The position numbers and the translations under genes were made by a program. From a virus: a stretch of 64,000 nt of DNA. The stretch is from the IMG/VR virus record IMGVR_UViG_3300027896_000002, positions 10,128 through 74,127 of that record. One strand, given 5' to 3'. Position 1 is the stretch's first letter. Each line of letters opens with the position of its first letter. Below, piece after piece: positions 12 through 63,187 of this stretch. Under the pieces are notes generated by a model. The model was not told the origin of the DNA and did no database searches. It saw nothing but the letters and a program-made list of their open reading frames with translations.

Positions 12-2333
12 TTGCTCTGTGACATGGAAGGCAAGCCCTATCCGAACGAGCATGCCTGCTGCATCAACGACCCAAAAAAGTATGACCGTATCAGGAGAAA
101 CAATGATAAGTTTGGCAAGGGCATTCACGCTCTCTGGGGGATCAAAAAAGGAAATCCGGTTGAGCTTCAAGCCATTCGGTTTTCTAAGAGTAAGTTCACG
201 CCAGCGGAGGCCCGTAAGTGGTGCAAGGACCATGAGTACAAATGCAAGCCCTTTGAGCCTGCCAGTGAAAAGTGTGCAACGTGTGGCGCAGAGATGGTCT
301 GGAAGTGGTTTATGGAAGATGAGGAAGATGGTGTCTATTCTTGCGAGGCCTGCAAGGGGATCAAGGCAAAAAAGAACGAGTGCAAGTGTGACAACGAGAA
401 GTGTGGCCACACGGTCGCGTGGGATAGCAATTGCCACGGGATGAAGTGCCTCAAGTGTGGCAAGGGAACGTTGAGAAGGGTGAAGAAGACGAAGAAAGAT
501 CTTGAGGGTAAGATGAGTGTTGAAACAAAGAGTGGACGGATGTTTATCGGCATTCATTCTATCCCGACCTTAATTGGCGTTGACATATATTCCGAACCAA
601 AGTTAAGAGAGATACTTGAATTTACAAGAGAATTTCTGAATCGAGGGACTCCAGTGACTTTGATGGCTGACGACGATTCAATCTGTGAGCTTGATAAAGA
701 TAAAATTCGCTTACTTGAAGAGCCGAAAGGAGCTATTCCATATAAGAAGACCCCTTCTGCCAAAGATGATGAGCCTTGGAGCTTAAGGGAAGAGATAGGT
801 AAGGCATCGCTGGATGACTTGAGAGAGATGGCAGTATGGGTTGATGAGAAGCGTCCCAAGGCTAAAGGCTCATACAAGGGAATTCACCACAAGGCTGGTG
901 GAGATTATCCTGTCGTTAAGAAAGCTGTCAGGGCATTGGCGGCCAACCTTTTAAATTCCAGGGGAGGAATTCACATCCCAACCGTTGACTTGAAAAAAGC
1001 ACGAGAGCACTGTGCTTCCCACTACGAAGATCTGGGAATGGGTGAAGTGCCATGGAAGAGCAAGAAGGGAATAGAGTTTGTTGAGTGGGTAGCTATCAGT
1101 TTTGATCTTAGCGGAATTTCTTTTAGGTCGTTTACTGAAGAAGATAATAAAAAGATCTTTGAGAAAGCTAAAACTCTTATTCCAGACCTTGTTGAATTCT
1201 TCAGCCTAGAGTATAAGCAAGACGATTGGGGGTACGGGGATGGTGGAGATGGTGACGGTACTGGAGATAGTGCCGAGCCGAACCTTACCGAAAGCGAGAC
1301 GGTGGTCATCGAGATGATAGATGGCCAGGAGATCCGAGACCGCATGGATAACTTGGGCATTGAGTACACGATGGGCGGCCATCACTACGTTTATCCTGAC
1401 TTGGTTCCAGAGGAAAATAAGATCATCGTCGATGGAAGGATGAGCGATGAGGATATCGTTGCCACAAAAGTTCACGAGTTCACTGAACGTGAGCTTATGA
1501 AGTATTACGACTTTCCCTATAATAACGCCCACGAGATTGCTAACATAGCAGAGGAAGGAGTTCGCCATATCCTGAAAGACTGTGAAGATGGTGGGCACGG
1601 CGGGGTGCTGGGGGATGGCCGTAATCACGATCCTGAACACAGAGGCAACCATCATCACGACCATGGGAGGACGGTAGACCACACGTGGGAGCAGGATGCA
1701 CTCAACGTTGTTAAGGAACTTTATCAGGCTTGGGATGAAATGAAAAAGCTTGGGCAGCATGATGACGAATGCACCTTTGATTCAATATGTCCAGCATGTA
1801 AAACTCCCATAGGGAAATGTGATAAGCACGTTGAAGCGATGGCGACTCGAATTGTAAAAATGGACAAGGCCATTGCTGATTGTGAAGAGAAAATCGGACA
1901 GGGCATCAGCTCAGCTTCAACAGACGTAAGGGATGAGGAGTTGGATTCCTTTATCGATTTTATAAAGACCATGAAGGAGAAGTTTAATTCAATAGAGTTG
2001 ATGGTTGCCGCTTTGACAAATAAGCAGAACGACATGTGCGAGCACTACATCGAAAAATGTTCTGTCTGTGATAAGGTGATCTCATCTTGTCGATGTTCAT
2101 CGAAGGATAAAGTGATCAAGCTTTCTGTTTGTAAGGAGTGCAGAGAGAAGAATAAAACTTCGGAGCCACAAAAGATAGTTGCGGTCAATGGCGGGGATGA
2201 GGAGAAGAGGATGCTTGCTGAGATCTCAAAGCAGCTGTCAAGGGAGTTCAGTGACCTGATAACCCAGTATGAAGAAAATACACGGAAGCTTATCAGGGCT
2301 GAAATCAATAAAGCTAAAGGGAGGGTAGAATAG
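12..2333 (+). CDS. Large multidomain head-morphogenesis protein, 5'-truncated; probably the C-terminal part of a prohead protease/scaffold fusion
   Basis: Frame is open to the window edge; lies directly upstream of the major capsid gene; several CxxC clusters, an HExxE...H segment and a C-terminal coiled coil. Confidence 0.5.
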   Translation: MLCDMEGKPYPNEHACCINDPKKYDRIRRNNDKFGKGIHALWGIKKGNPVELQAIRFSKSKFTPAEARKWCKDHEYKCKPFEPASEKCATCGAEMVWKWFMEDEEDGVYSCEACKGIKAKKNECKCDNEKCGHTVAWDSNCHGMKCLKCGKGTLRRVKKTKKDLEGKMSVETKSGRMFIGIHSIPTLIGVDIYSEPKLREILEFTREFLNRGTPVTLMADDDSICELDKDKIRLLEEPKGAIPYKKTPSAKDDEPWSLREEIGKASLDDLREMAVWVDEKRPKAKGSYKGIHHKAGGDYPVVKKAVRALAANLLNSRGGIHIPTVDLKKAREHCASHYEDLGMGEVPWKSKKGIEFVEWVAISFDLSGISFRSFTEEDNKKIFEKAKTLIPDLVEFFSLEYKQDDWGYGDGGDGDGTGDSAEPNLTESETVVIEMIDGQEIRDRMDNLGIEYTMGGHHYVYPDLVPEENKIIVDGRMSDEDIVATKVHEFTERELMKYYDFPYNNAHEIANIAEEGVRHILKDCEDGGHGGVLGDGRNHDPEHRGNHHHDHGRTVDHTWEQDALNVVKELYQAWDEMKKLGQHDDECTFDSICPACKTPIGKCDKHVEAMATRIVKMDKAIADCEEKIGQGISSASTDVRDEELDSFIDFIKTMKEKFNSIELMVAALTNKQNDMCEHYIEKCSVCDKVISSCRCSSKDKVIKLSVCKECREKNKTSEPQKIVAVNGGDEEKRMLAEISKQLSREFSDLITQYEENTRKLIRAEINKAKGRVE

Positions 2334-2334
2334 A

Positions 2335-2462
2335 GATCCTAACCCGAATAGACGGGATCATCCCAATAGGGATTAACAGGTCGGGTGAAAATAAGATTTA
2401 ACAAGGATTCCACCCTGAATAGACGGAATCACCCAGGACTTAAAGGGGTTAGCAGGACAGGG
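2335..2462 (+). ncRNA. Tandem pair of candidate pseudoknotted RNA motifs in the capsid leader
   Basis: Two units with compensatory pairing: GATCCT/GGGATC vs GATTCC/GGAATC and CCCGA/TCGGG vs CCCTG/CAGGG; conserved AATAGAC and TTARCAGG. Confidence 0.55.
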
Positions 2463-2503
2463 GAAAAAAGAAAATAAAAAACTAAAAAAGGAGGAAACAC
2501 ACT

Positions 2504-3826
2504 ATGGACCCGATAGAAGTTGAAGTTAAAAAGAAAGAGGACGGCTCGTTGTATTTTGACGTGGCTAAGATCATGGAGCACATGCAGAATGGCACCTTAG
2601 GCGTTATTAGGCAGGAGATGAAGAGTCTTTTGCAGGCCGAGGTGAAGACCATTTTTGACAACAGCGATGGGCGTTTTGTCGGTAAAGAAGATAAGTCCAT
2701 CATCGACACAAGCTATTTCAGCAAAGGCTACGCGGCTGGCAGACGGGGTGAAATGGACGGAAGCCAGTTGGCTTTTACCCTGGCTGCTTGTGGTGGGCCG
2801 TGGCTAAAGCTCTCACCGGCTATGGAAAAGTTTGCAAACTTAGTTCGGCTGAGATTCGATCCCAATCAGATTGTCGCTAAGGGAATTAGCATGCAGGACT
2901 ATAACAAGGAGATGTATGATTGGAACAAGAAGGCCGCACTTTCTGGAGCTTTGACAGAGGCTGATGTGGGCGCGATTGTTCCAATTGAGTTCCTTGCAAC
3001 CGTCATTGAGTTTGCGATTGAGCAGAGCAAGATATTGCCCAAGCTCTGGAGAATTCCACTGGGTGCCTATCAGACAAGAATCCCGCAGCTTGCCCAGTCT
3101 GCAGGCAGCTATTTTGGTGGGATTTTGCTCTATCACCCAGAGGAAGCTTACGAGAAGACAGGTACAAAACCAACTTTCGTTTACAAGACCCTGACACCTA
3201 AGAAGTTGATCGGTTTGATTCCGATCTCTGACGAATTGGTTATGGACAGCTCAATCAACATCATCAATTACCTAACGGGCCTTTTCACCAGGGCCTTTCA
3301 GTATGCGTCAGAGGGTGAGGTGATTGCAGGTGCTGGGCTGTTGGGCCAGATGCTGGGCATCACCAGTGACCCTTTTATCAACGTAGTGCCCAGACAGACA
3401 GCAGGGACAGTCAAGAGAGATGATGTGATTAACCTTGAGTCTATCCTTGATGAGAACTTTCAGGACCTTAATTACCTGACAAGGAGAACAACCCTTAATA
3501 TTCTTCGCAAGGAGAAAAATGTTGTTGGCACTCCATTTTACTATGACACGATGGAGTCTGGGCTTGAGAGAGGGGTTGGCCCCCAGCTTAATGGGTATCC
3601 AGTGCTTAAAACTCGGAACGTGCCAGCCACAGGAAAGAAAGGTGACATCATCTGTGGTGAGCTTGGGTATTATCTCTGGGGCATTCGTCAGGACATGACC
3701 ATTGATATGTCAGCCGAGCGATATTTTGAGTACGATGTGAAGGCCATCCGCTTTGTGGTTCGTCAGGACGGACTGCCAGGCGTTTCGATTGCCTTTGCAG
3801 TGCTTGACAGTACCCCAGAATCATAA
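2504..3826 (+). CDS. Major capsid protein, HK97 fold
   Basis: GAIVPIEF...IE, KKLIGLIPISDEL..DS, LNGYPV, FEYDVKAIRFVVRQDG motifs; strong SD AAGGAGG. Confidence 0.92.
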   Translation: MDPIEVEVKKKEDGSLYFDVAKIMEHMQNGTLGVIRQEMKSLLQAEVKTIFDNSDGRFVGKEDKSIIDTSYFSKGYAAGRRGEMDGSQLAFTLAACGGPWLKLSPAMEKFANLVRLRFDPNQIVAKGISMQDYNKEMYDWNKKAALSGALTEADVGAIVPIEFLATVIEFAIEQSKILPKLWRIPLGAYQTRIPQLAQSAGSYFGGILLYHPEEAYEKTGTKPTFVYKTLTPKKLIGLIPISDELVMDSSINIINYLTGLFTRAFQYASEGEVIAGAGLLGQMLGITSDPFINVVPRQTAGTVKRDDVINLESILDENFQDLNYLTRRTTLNILRKEKNVVGTPFYYDTMESGLERGVGPQLNGYPVLKTRNVPATGKKGDIICGELGYYLWGIRQDMTIDMSAERYFEYDVKAIRFVVRQDGLPGVSIAFAVLDSTPES

Positions 3827-32663: not shown

Positions 32664-32675
32664 GAGGATAAGTTA

Positions 32676-33371
32676 ATGAAAAAAGTTATTCGCTGGTCGG
32701 TAATAGGAATTTTAGTAGGTGTTTTTTCTCCGTATATAATCATAGCTATCTTGAACTTCGTCAACTCCTGGCTTAATAGCTGGAAATTTAATTGGTGAAG
32801 GAGATTAGAGAATGAAAAAGATTATCTATTGGTCAATAATAGTAATTTTGATAGTTGCTCTTTCTCCATTTATAATCTTGTTTATAGCTGGAGATTTAGT
32901 TGGCGAAGGTCTTTCAATGTTAAGTTAAAAGGATGTATAAAAATGGAAATCTATATTGGAATTTTTGGTTTAATTTTGGCTCTCCTTATTTGCTGGCTAA
33001 TTTGGCCGTAGGAGGTGAGTTTATGATTCCTTATATTGTGGTAGGTCTTTTAGTGATAGGTGTGATTTGGAGAAACTGGTAGGAGGTGAATCAGTATGTT
33101 GAAGTATTGGCTATGTCTTATTGCGATTGTAGGTCTGGTTATAGCGGGACTAATATTCAAGACCAAAACAGGTGGAGTGAATGTTATTTTCTTCTTTGCT
33201 TTGATAGCATTAGGTTGGGCATTTTTATTGCTTACAAACAGAAAATGGGAACGGGAGGAATAAATAATGTTACGAATCTTACATAACCAAAAAAGGTATC
33301 AGAGATTTAATCCATTTACACTCATTATGGTGTTGATAGTTATTGCAGTCACATATCTCTTATCAAAGTAA
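32676..33371 (+). other. Array of six tiny membrane-peptide ORFs (32676-32798, 32812-32928, 32943-33011, 33023-33082, 33096-33263, 33267-33371)
   Basis: Each has an ATG with an SD-like motif (GGAG/GGAGG or AAGGA) and a hydrophobic helix; translated by hand. Confidence 0.6.
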
Positions 33372-33390
33372 GAACTGAAAAGGAGGGAGT

Positions 33391-33813
33391 TTGATGGAAC
33401 GAATAATGAAATTTATTAAGATATTTCCATGGTGGTTTTGGATCTTGGTAATTGTAGGCTTGCTTTTTCTATGGCAGGCTTTTTCAGGATGGTCAATGTC
33501 TAAAAAATATTTCGATCTGGCCGTTCAGGGCCTTAAGACAGAAGAGTCTCAGGTCCTTAAAAATAAGGATGAATACATCAAGGCATGTGAGACAGAGATC
33601 AGAGATAAGCAGGTAGAGATCGATCAGATTAAGAAAGAGAAGGCAACGCTACAGATTGATAAAGTCAATTCGGCCGCTGAAGTTGTCCGGCTAAAAAGGA
33701 GCAACGATGACCTTAAAAGGCAGATTCGAGAAATCATTATTCCTGATGATCCTGATCGGATCATTGACGATCTGCGGAAACGCTTTCCCTCAATCCATAA
33801 GATTCAGCCTTGA
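33391..33813 (+). CDS. Putative i-spanin
   Basis: N-terminal TM plus coiled coil at end of lysis module. Confidence 0.55.
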   Translation: MMERIMKFIKIFPWWFWILVIVGLLFLWQAFSGWSMSKKYFDLAVQGLKTEESQVLKNKDEYIKACETEIRDKQVEIDQIKKEKATLQIDKVNSAAEVVRLKRSNDDLKRQIREIIIPDDPDRIIDDLRKRFPSIHKIQP

Positions 33814-47280: not shown

Positions 47281-47438
47281 GGTCTCCTCCTTTTTTTACT
47301 TAATCCCTTTAACAAGGATTTGAAGTGCGACCGGCTCTAAAGAAAATAGAACCTTAATCGCTGTTAGAAATCCAATGATCTTCCAAATTCCAAAAAAATT
47401 TTTCTTTGTGATGTTGCCTTTCATTTTGGTCTCCTCCT

Positions 47439-47573
47439 TTATTTTTTGATAAGGCTTTTATGAATAATTTTTCCAGTAGAAAGTACAAGAAAACCTCTAC
47501 CATAACCATCTTCCTTTGTTGCTTTTCTAATAATAAAAATTTCCTTATTTCTAAACGTGTAAACTTTTCTCAT
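47439..47573 (-). CDS. Small hypothetical protein (44 aa)
   Basis: ATG after conserved leader; not in ORF track. Confidence 0.55.
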   Translation of the reverse strand: MRKVYTFRNKEIFIIRKATKEDGYGRGFLVLSTGKIIHKSLIKK

Positions 47574-47597
47574 GGTCTCCTCCTTTTAAATTTTAAT

Positions 47598-47672
47598 CGC
47601 GGCTTGCAACCCTTAACTTTTTTACCGCCGGCATGATCTATATCTTAATGATATAAACCACGCCACAGGGTC
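47598..47672 (-). ncRNA. Candidate pseudoknot RNA motif, copy 2
   Basis: GACCCU/AGGGUU; 15-bp hairpin; GCGGU/GCCGC; conserved GGCG-N6-AAGUUAAGGG. Confidence 0.5.
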
Positions 47673-47885
47673 ATTTTGTCTTTTCACTCTTCAGTTGTCA
47701 AGGTTGGTGGCGGATTATTCTAATGATAGGCCTGAAAAATGTTTTTCAGATCCTACGTTCGAAACGCCTTGGTTATTGTCAAAAACTTCTGCCTTTGCCA
47801 ATGAGGCTTGGTCCCCGGCTCGCTTGTTGCCTTTGTTTCTCGCCTCGCTTGCCTCATGATATTTATTAATCTTAACCATGACCTA

Positions 47886-47914
47886 ATCCTACTATATCTA
47901 AATGATAATGTAAA
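47886..47914 (-). promoter_or_regulatory. Sigma70-type early promoter
   Basis: TTTACA-17 nt-TAGGAT with AT-rich upstream region, facing the early gene array. Confidence 0.65.
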
Positions 47915-47941
47915 TACTTTTTTTCATTTCCAGGAAAATAG

Positions 47942-48061
47942 TTTCTAAGTTATTGAAATCATTAGGCTTTTTAATCATTAATTTTTTTTAATTTTAACCA
48001 TTTTTCTGTCTTAAAAAAGCTTCATGGTACATGTTTTTCTAAGTTATTGAAATTATTAGGC
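47942..48061. repeat. 26-bp direct repeat with IHF-like core
   Basis: TTTCTAAGTTATTGAAATYATTAGGC at 47942 and 48036. Confidence 0.7.
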
Positions 48062-48152
48062 CTTTTGAGTTAGAAACTAACACATTTCTCCTGGATAATA
48101 TTATTTTTTTCAATATTCAATTCCATGATGATCTGGACATCATTATAGAGCT

Positions 48153-62453: not shown

Positions 62454-62460
62454 AGGCCTG

Positions 62461-62490
62461 ATTATAGCTCAGGCCTTTTATAAATGTAAA
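62461..62490 (-). promoter_or_regulatory. Sigma70-type promoter, probably leaderless transcript
   Basis: TTTACA-18 nt-TATAAT, 7 nt before ATG at 62453; no SD. Confidence 0.6.
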
Positions 62491-62558
62491 TCCTTTTTTT
62501 ATGGTCCTTTGAAAATAAAGATCAAAGAGCTGGCACCTATATATAATGATACGGAAAA

Positions 62559-63065
62559 CAAGCCACGTGATGCTCAGAGGCAAGCCATGTGATGCTTAAT
62601 AATTTCAATAGGTTACAAAAAGATGCTATTTATAAGTTATTGATTTTATTAAGCTTCTTTGACTCAGGGTCCAGAGAGATTTCATTCATCAAGTGATGCA
62701 ACTATGAAAATTCTTCATTAACAACTTCAATAAGTTAGGGGACAATTTCCTGGTTGCATCACATGCATCACATGTAGCTTCAATATGTGATGACTATCTA
62801 ACTTTATGAATTTACAACAACTTTTTGAGCTTTTTCTCTTATAAGGGGTAAAAAGACAATGGAAAAAATGTTTTATTTTTTTTTCTTCAAAACATATGAT
62901 GCAAGTGATACATGTGATGATGCTAAATAATTTTAATAACTTAGAGCATAAGACATAGTGATGCAGATGTGATGTTTGATAATAAAACAGATATTGTTAA
63001 GCCCTTGGGAACTTTAGAAAAATACTTTGATTTATTTCTCCCATTGTCTTTTCACCCCTTATAAG
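62559..63065. repeat. Repeat-rich non-coding region (origin or packaging site candidate)
   Basis: About ten GTGATG(C)-like motifs, IHF consensus at 62633-62645, 25-bp inverted repeat 62838-62862/63041-63065. Confidence 0.6.
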
Positions 63066-63187
63066 GGAGACAGAATTTCCTGGACTTATTAAAAGTATTT
63101 ACATTAAATAAAAAGTTTAAAATATTAAATTATTTATTGTACATTGGCCTTAAAGCATGATATAGACATAGGGCTATAAGGTGAGGC

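Follow-up and report, generated by a model that had tools for sequence, protein, structure and literature searches.

The stretch of DNA analysed here, hereafter the window, is 64,000 nucleotides long and corresponds to bases 10128-74127 of a 74,127-base IMG/VR virus record. In it, a 170-nt spacer (2334-2503) separates a protease/scaffold-like gene from an HK97-type major capsid gene, and the portal gene is located further upstream of the protease/scaffold-like gene. For comparison we used approximately 40 related loci obtained by capsid-based searches of IMG/VR and JGI metagenomes, which are referred to by number (L004, L026 and so on). The gene preceding the spacer encodes a protein of 1005 amino acids composed of a prohead protease N-terminal domain and a long scaffold-like C-terminal part; its N-terminus matches prohead proteases (phrog_80, 1e-12) and the orthologous protein of L004 matches Peptidase_S78. 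Near the C-terminus of this protein there is a Cys-rich, zinc-ribbon-like insert (C-x6-C-x2-C ... C-x-C ... C-x2-C, window 2030-2150), which is absent from the close relative L041, and similar clusters are present in L026, L012, L033, L035 and L050. Nearly all upstream proteins of the capsid clade (L004, L012, L014, L026, L027 and others) end in ...[RK]-G-[KR]-[VI]-x directly before the stop codon, a motif encoded at 2300-2333 in the window, and this ending may be a capsid-binding or protease-cleavage tail.

The features of the spacer and its surroundings are collected in Table 1. Two units of approximately 55 nt lie in the spacer and are followed by an A-rich leader with a predicted unpaired probability of 0.71; in L004 and L026, too, an A-rich tail and the sequence AAGGAGG come after the element. 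Scoring of 1800-2800 in the window gave neither a promoter-like nor a terminator-like site, and the spacer region is without tRNA or tmRNA. A reading of the units as a simple tandem repeat was rejected, as was a recoding stimulator causing frameshift or read-through into a fusion protein, given the stops in all three frames of 2301-2520 between the genes. An intrinsic terminator, that is a GC-rich hairpin and a U-run, was also sought in 1800-2800 and none is present there, such a structure being found in the homologous P2 of L004 and L026. On the other side of the capsid gene, the hairpin 3' of the stop codon keeps its stem in L041, with the loop alone altered, and the terminator scan did not score it. 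In L004 this site is occupied by another hairpin. The window hairpin may mark the point at which a stable segment of capsid mRNA ends on its 3' side. Elsewhere in the window, a crude ORF map shows stretches of 0.7-1 kb without any ORF of at least 70 amino acids (32664-33706, 47281-48152 and 62454-63187).

Table 1. Positions of the features in the window and, where a locus number is given, in related loci.
Feature	Position	Strand	Remarks
Upstream gene stop codon, TAG	2331-2333	+	unit 1 begins 2 nt downstream
Unit 1	2335-2386	+	pairing, covariation, layout descriptor
Unit 1, P1	2335-2340 with 2354-2359	+	GATCCT/GGGATC, one U-G pair
Unit 1, L1	A2341	+	
Unit 1, pseudoknot strands	2342-2347 with 2381-2386	+	ACCCGA/TCGGGT
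Unit 1, L2	2348-2353	+	AUAGAC
Unit 1, P2 hairpin	2360-2373	+	ATCCC-AATA-GGGAT, abuts P1
Unit 1, linker	2374-2380	+	UAACAGG
Inter-unit spacer GAAAAUAAGAUUUAACAAG	2387-2405	+	A/U-rich, unpaired; 16/19 identical in L041
Unit 2	2406-2462	+	pairing, covariation, layout descriptor
Unit 2, P1	2406-2411 with 2425-2430	+	GATTCC/GGAATC
Unit 2, L1	A2412	+	
Unit 2, pseudoknot strands	2413-2417 with 2458-2462	+	CCCTG/CAGGG
Unit 2, L2	2418-2424	+	(A)AUAGAC
Unit 2, P2 hairpin	2431-2449	+	ACCC...GGGT
Unit 2, linker	2450-2456	+	UAGCAGG
A-rich unstructured leader	2463-2503	+	A-rich tract 2463-2487, then Shine-Dalgarno
Shine-Dalgarno AAGGAGG	2488-2494	+	9 nt before capsid ATG
HK97-type major capsid gene, 440 aa	2504-3826	+	Pfam PF05065, 1.1e-31
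Hairpin 3' of capsid stop codon	3865-3901	+	8-bp stem GGCCCAGG/CUGGGCC, no U-run
Multibranch fold in L027	L027:1385-1500		z = -5.6
Long hairpin in L062	L062:1389-1490		z = -3.8
GC hairpin then U7 in L033	L033:1369-1446		
GC hairpin then U7 in L035	L035:1362-1449		

The original prediction was of two tandem pseudoknot units on the capsid-sense strand whose stems had changed in a compensatory manner, and the analysis bore out this structural reading, with every listed element found at the positions predicted and with support from the comparison of the units, the L041 alignment, the G-U pairs and the orthologues in L041, the L004 group and L026. Each unit consists of a 6-bp P1, a 1-nt loop, a pairing of 5-6 bp between the P1 loop and the 3' tail, an embedded P2 hairpin and a 7-nt linker of the form UARCAGG. 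The unpaired AATAGAC is identical in unit 1 and unit 2, and TTAACAGG and TTAGCAGG differ by one base between the units. Pairing and covariation show each unit to be, at the level of predicted structure, an H-type RNA pseudoknot with a hairpin embedded in the third loop and with P2 stacked directly on P1. Nested MFE folding of the region was unexceptional in comparison with shuffles (z = 0.10), so it is the covariation and the pseudoknot, not bulk stability, that carry the case. Addition of the pseudoknot helix brought the energy of each unit 3-5 kcal/mol lower than that of the nested MFE fold (a rough sum with a standard penalty), L026 excepted. A descriptor for the full layout of P1, P2 and loop-tail pairing matched 3% of shuffled spacers, and it matched twice in the real spacer. 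Base pairing between the linker and GACCTGATAACCC, which lies in the coding sequence upstream, was rejected, since it is not conserved in L041.

Between the two units, 9 of the 38 alignable positions outside P2 differ and eight of these nine are in stems. Nevertheless 11 of 12 pairs are kept, through three double (compensatory) changes, namely C-G to U-A in P1 and A-U to C-G and C-G to U-A in the pseudoknot, together with one change from U-G to C-G. Random substitutions kept as many pairs in approximately 3% of trials (P ~0.03 for this comparison of paralogues). When the two units of L041 were aligned with those of the window, 97% of cells paired and four pairs presented double changes; none of 500 shuffles reached the covariation score, and slid registers dropped to 25-57% paired. 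Taken together, the comparisons give covariation in P2 as well as in P1 and the pseudoknot. Five G-U pairs across the element sequences, one of them a C-to-U polymorphism inside the P2 of L004, would be A-C mismatches on the opposite strand, which indicates that the RNA is the capsid-sense strand. The pairs of L004 and L026 were listed by a scripted hand parse, MAFFT having given no in-register alignment of them.

Homologues of the motif, which the original prediction had proposed looking for upstream of other capsid genes, were found before the related capsid genes of L041, the L004 group and L026. L041 is a 78-kb metagenome contig with 89% capsid identity that carries both units. Its unit 1 is identical to that of the window at 52 of 52 positions, and at 60 of 60 with the tail included, and the flanking coding DNA is 14% diverged (P ~1e-4); because of this difference, unit 1 is judged to be under strong purifying selection. 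In unit 2 of L041 there is one change in L2, and P2 has been swapped for GUCCC-AAUA-GGGAU, which is still a hairpin with its pairing kept. The source sample also contains a minor strain (contig depth ~14 versus ~180) of an L041-type variant, with unit 1 unchanged; in the comparison over window 2150-2650 the contigs break at 2363/2365, inside the shared unit.

The L004 group is a clade at 70% capsid identity made up of near-identical contigs with three sequence variants of the element. These have a single unit of the same layout and with different P1 and pseudoknot sequences: in L004, P1 is GUCCCC/GGGGAC, L1 is A, the pseudoknot is GCCCUGA/UCGGGGC, L2 is UCAAGCGA, the linker is UAACAAU, and P2 is a 69-nt hairpin containing a terminator-like stem with a U-run. 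Chance alone would give a pseudoknot of 7 bp at these homologous, fixed positions with a probability of approximately 1e-3. L026, at 60% capsid identity, has a looser version, with P1 AAUCCCC/GGGGAUU, the loop pairing GUCCU/AGGAC, a 2-nt linker and a long P2 that likewise carries a terminator-like hairpin with a U-run; when it is aligned on the shared CCUGA loop motif, its pseudoknot presents a further change from C-G to U-A. Over all of these elements the length of P2 ranges from 14 to 69 nt. The position is constant, just 3' of the protease/scaffold stop codon, and is followed by an A-rich unpaired tract and a strong ribosome-binding site. These comparisons show the predicted pseudoknot fold to be conserved, with covarying pairs, across four sequence types, of which three are closely related. 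Ahead of its unit, L004 has approximately 200 nt of extra non-coding sequence (L004:2643-2838) in which P1 and P2 are arranged a second time, with a loop-tail pairing of 8 bp, AGCACAUU/AAUGUGUU. This second arrangement could be due to chance, and 60% of shuffles of that long spacer yield some match.

The absence of a recognised family, also part of the original prediction, was confirmed by cmscan, which gave no Rfam 15 match for the window element: for 2200-2600, at E up to 10, no family came near its gathering threshold. The sole match in this region, to CRISPR-DR17 on the minus strand, scored 16.9 bits (gathering score 42, E = 2.2) and is taken as chance, and nothing was matched at the elements of L004, L026 and L041. 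The element was found only in the capsid leader: searches of the window, of the phage as a whole and of the contigs of the relatives gave no further copy, and the covariance model R1 likewise detected nothing else in the window or in the whole contigs of the relatives. Scans of IMG/VR with exact and degenerate motifs returned only the L004 group and chance matches in coding DNA. A scan of 185,579 species genomes gave 47 chance matches, and the best match to the covariance model lay inside a leuB-like gene. A search of bacterial genomes with the capsid protein found one short MAG contig only, and the collection of phage records that was searched contains no close relative; two capsid relatives, P0002 and P0004, at 83% and 64% identity, are known as proteins alone. 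In these searches the motif family is narrow, with four sequence types, and no members came to light other than those in the window, L041, the L004 group and L026. It is well supported that the element is a candidate RNA motif uncatalogued in Rfam 15 and of a known general kind, the structured leader of a phage late gene.

In roughly half of the related lineages the protease and capsid genes are only 2-27 nt apart and the element is absent. In other lineages (L027, L062, L033 and L035) the same spacer is occupied by unrelated and very stable structures, which are listed in Table 1. The pseudoknot descriptor also matched in L027 and L062, where nested folds of the multibranch or long-hairpin type account better for the matches. 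That one site carries different structures, and that sister lineages do without them, favours a generic post-transcriptional role and disfavours a conserved ligand or a catalytic core. The original prediction had suggested an element that binds protein, stabilises the message or is processed and so raises capsid output relative to the upstream gene; indirectly, the picture in the related lineages would point to stabilisation or processing of a generic kind.

Among known RNAs, preQ1-II has a fold in which the order is helix 5' strand, pseudoknot 5' strand, helix 3' strand, embedded hairpin, linker and pseudoknot 3' strand, and the Shine-Dalgarno sequence is within the pseudoknot 3' strand. The units of the window share this strand order, that of an H-type pseudoknot with a hairpin in the third loop. 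However, in unit 2 the pseudoknot 3' strand is 26 nt upstream of the Shine-Dalgarno sequence and in unit 1 it is 102 nt upstream, and the window element has no Rfam match. With the flavivirus xrRNAs the window shares an arrangement of compact pseudoknotted units in tandem in a viral untranslated region; xrRNA folds stop bacterial RNase J1 in vitro (PMC5760640). In contrast, these are three-way junctions with a ring encircling the 5' end, whereas the window has two stacked hairpins and one loop-tail helix in each unit; the covarying structure, as read from the nucleotide sequence, contains no three-way junction and there was no Rfam xrRNA match.

The leader of T4 gene 32, with its T2 counterpart, is the closest precedent. 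RNase E cleaves all mRNAs of T4 gene 32 at -71, beside a leader pseudoknot located 67 nt upstream of the start codon, and an A+U-rich unpaired tract lies 3' of the pseudoknot in these most stable T4 mRNAs (PMC3014915). The window has in common with the T4/T2 leader an H-type pseudoknot tens of nucleotides before the start codon of a heavily expressed phage gene, a first loop of a single nucleotide, and an A-rich (A+U-rich) unpaired tract extending from the pseudoknot to the ribosome-binding site. It differs in that its element has no sequence similarity to T4/T2 and is duplicated in tandem, in that its pseudoknot, predicted from the DNA, has an embedded hairpin and a strand of 6-8 nt between the helices, and in that the gene which follows encodes an HK97-type capsid protein (PF05065), for which nucleic-acid binding is not known, and not a single-strand-binding protein that binds its own leader. 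A survey of candidate structured RNAs in IMG/VR produced 8,495 models, of which five are located before a major capsid protein family and twelve before gene 32 (PMC10690425). The window element resembles these candidates as a covarying and probably cis-acting structure directly upstream of a phage gene, but it ends 42 nt upstream of the start codon and the filter of the survey was at most 25 nt.

Our best guess, and a tentative one drawn by analogy with the T4 gene 32 leader, is that the element works in cis, its compact structure shielding the capsid mRNA segment at the 5' end. Perhaps the A/U-rich sequence at the upstream stop codon is where the long late transcript is cut or trimmed, and the pseudoknot, duplicated in the window phage, would then be the 5' end of the capsid segment and would shield it from 5'-end-dependent decay, either by RNase E entry or by RNase J-type trimming. 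Through such shielding the capsid mRNA would outlast the protease/scaffold message and capsid output would be uncoupled from it. The unpaired AAUAGAC and UARCA might make tertiary contacts that tighten the fold, for example A-minor contacts of the linker in the P1 groove. The presence of a conserved hairpin also 3' of the capsid gene is consistent with a generic role. On the other hand, the bias of the differences to stems (8/9) together with the invariant AAUAGAC between the window's units is a pattern more typical of specific recognition, which counts against a shield; a plain stabiliser needs no sequence-conserved loops. Also against a shield, the terminator-like U-run hairpin in the P2 of L004 and L026 would be transcribed at a time when the pseudoknot cannot yet close. 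A role as insulator of the ribosome-binding site was rejected, since its accessibility in silico was unchanged by the units (0.71 with and 0.72 without). That the 5' end of the capsid mRNA is defined or protected by a protein-free RNA device, be it a nuclease-stopping fold as a bacterial counterpart of the xrRNAs or a new self-cleaving ribozyme, seems to us very unlikely.

The invariant unpaired bases, the compact pseudoknot and a stem of variable length (14-69 nt) are features of many ribozymes and aptamers, and a tandem arrangement is seen in some riboswitches. Small self-cleaving ribozymes often occur near phage genes. A catalytic or ligand-sensing RNA, either a new small ribozyme cutting the late mRNA before the capsid gene or a tandem riboswitch aptamer, is nevertheless improbable: no Rfam ribozyme or riboswitch matched, even at E up to 10, and the candidate core loop L2 varies in length and sequence between lineages. 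HDV-like ribozymes form a nested double pseudoknot in which the P3 hairpin and L3 separate the 5' strand of P2 from the 3' strand of P1. The element has an HDV-like strand order, yet where P3 and L3 must form there are, over the different lineages, only 5-8 nt (AUAGAC, UCAAGCGA, GACGG), and there was no Rfam HDV-type match. In pistol ribozymes the P1 loop pairs with the strand between P2 and P3, and there is a conserved linker and a G-U cleavage site; the pseudoknot 3' strand of the window is not flanked by helices in this manner, being followed by an unpaired A-rich tail with no enclosing helices, and again no Rfam match was obtained. A riboswitch would lack an expression platform here, as the pseudoknot does not touch the Shine-Dalgarno sequence and 1800-2800 of the window is without a terminator. 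Specific recognition might instead be by a protein, each pseudoknot being the site of a phage or host factor that tunes capsid translation, on the model of gp32 and the gene 32 leader. Such a protein would nucleate on the pseudoknot and spread over the A-rich leader or recruit ribosomes to it, and two units would allow cooperative binding. This operator is a possibility, although we think it unlikely. It would account for loops that are more conserved than stems (eight of nine differences in stems, AAUAGAC invariant in the window's units and UARCAGG with a one-base difference), and the different sequence and length of L2 in the 70% clade (UCAAGCGA) would be expected if RNA and protein co-evolve; the order of pseudoknot, A-rich unpaired tract and ribosome-binding site also matches the gene 32 operator (PMC3014915). 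However, no candidate binding protein was found, and the downstream product is a capsid protein and not a nucleic-acid-binding protein. Nor does the Cys-rich insert of the upstream protein track the element, and a tie between the two was rejected, L041 being without the insert and yet with both units.

The element begins 2 nt after the upstream stop codon, and it may therefore be asked whether it serves the upstream gene or transcription, as a 3' barrier keeping 3'-5' exonucleases off the protease/scaffold message, a site of pausing or partial termination, or an obstacle to Rho loading in the long spacer that is not translated. The same spacer of L004, L026, L027, L033 and L035 contains terminator-like GC hairpins with U-runs, which would agree with this, but the units of the window have no U-run and were not scored as terminators. 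Attenuation at this place would be counter-intuitive, because capsid is needed in far greater copy number than protease, and spacers of the L033 type are too short for a promoter 3' of the hairpin, so that read-through must be the rule; we consider such a role decidedly improbable. Even less probable, in our judgement, is that the spacer has no RNA function and contains either a recent tandem duplication with chance complementarity or paired sites of a DNA-binding protein. In its favour are the small sample, a P of ~0.03 for the paralogue covariation test taken alone, a nested MFE no better than in shuffles, and the interrupted palindrome that the arms of P1 form in DNA. Against this, covariation is seen in P1 as well as in the loop-tail helix interleaved with it, the layout is found at fixed positions in orthologues whose sequences differ, the P2 of unit 2 was replaced in L041 and is still a hairpin, the G-U pairs are strand-specific, and unit 1 appears to be under strong purifying selection. 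One DNA-binding protein would presumably not tolerate different half-sites in one genome.

Surveys already catalogue candidate structures upstream of capsid genes (PMC10690425), and the element described here would be of that general class. If it does shield the capsid segment, an uncultured group of freshwater-sediment phages would provide a simple and testable example of capsid message levels being set by a small, modular pseudoknot. Phages need hundreds of capsid subunits for a few protease or portal subunits, all from one late transcript. To our knowledge, how the capsid/protease ratio is set is known in only a few model phages. The unit could in that case also be a portable part for stabilising mRNA or tuning expression, and its interest would rise considerably if it turned out to stop nucleases without any protein or to be a new ribozyme.
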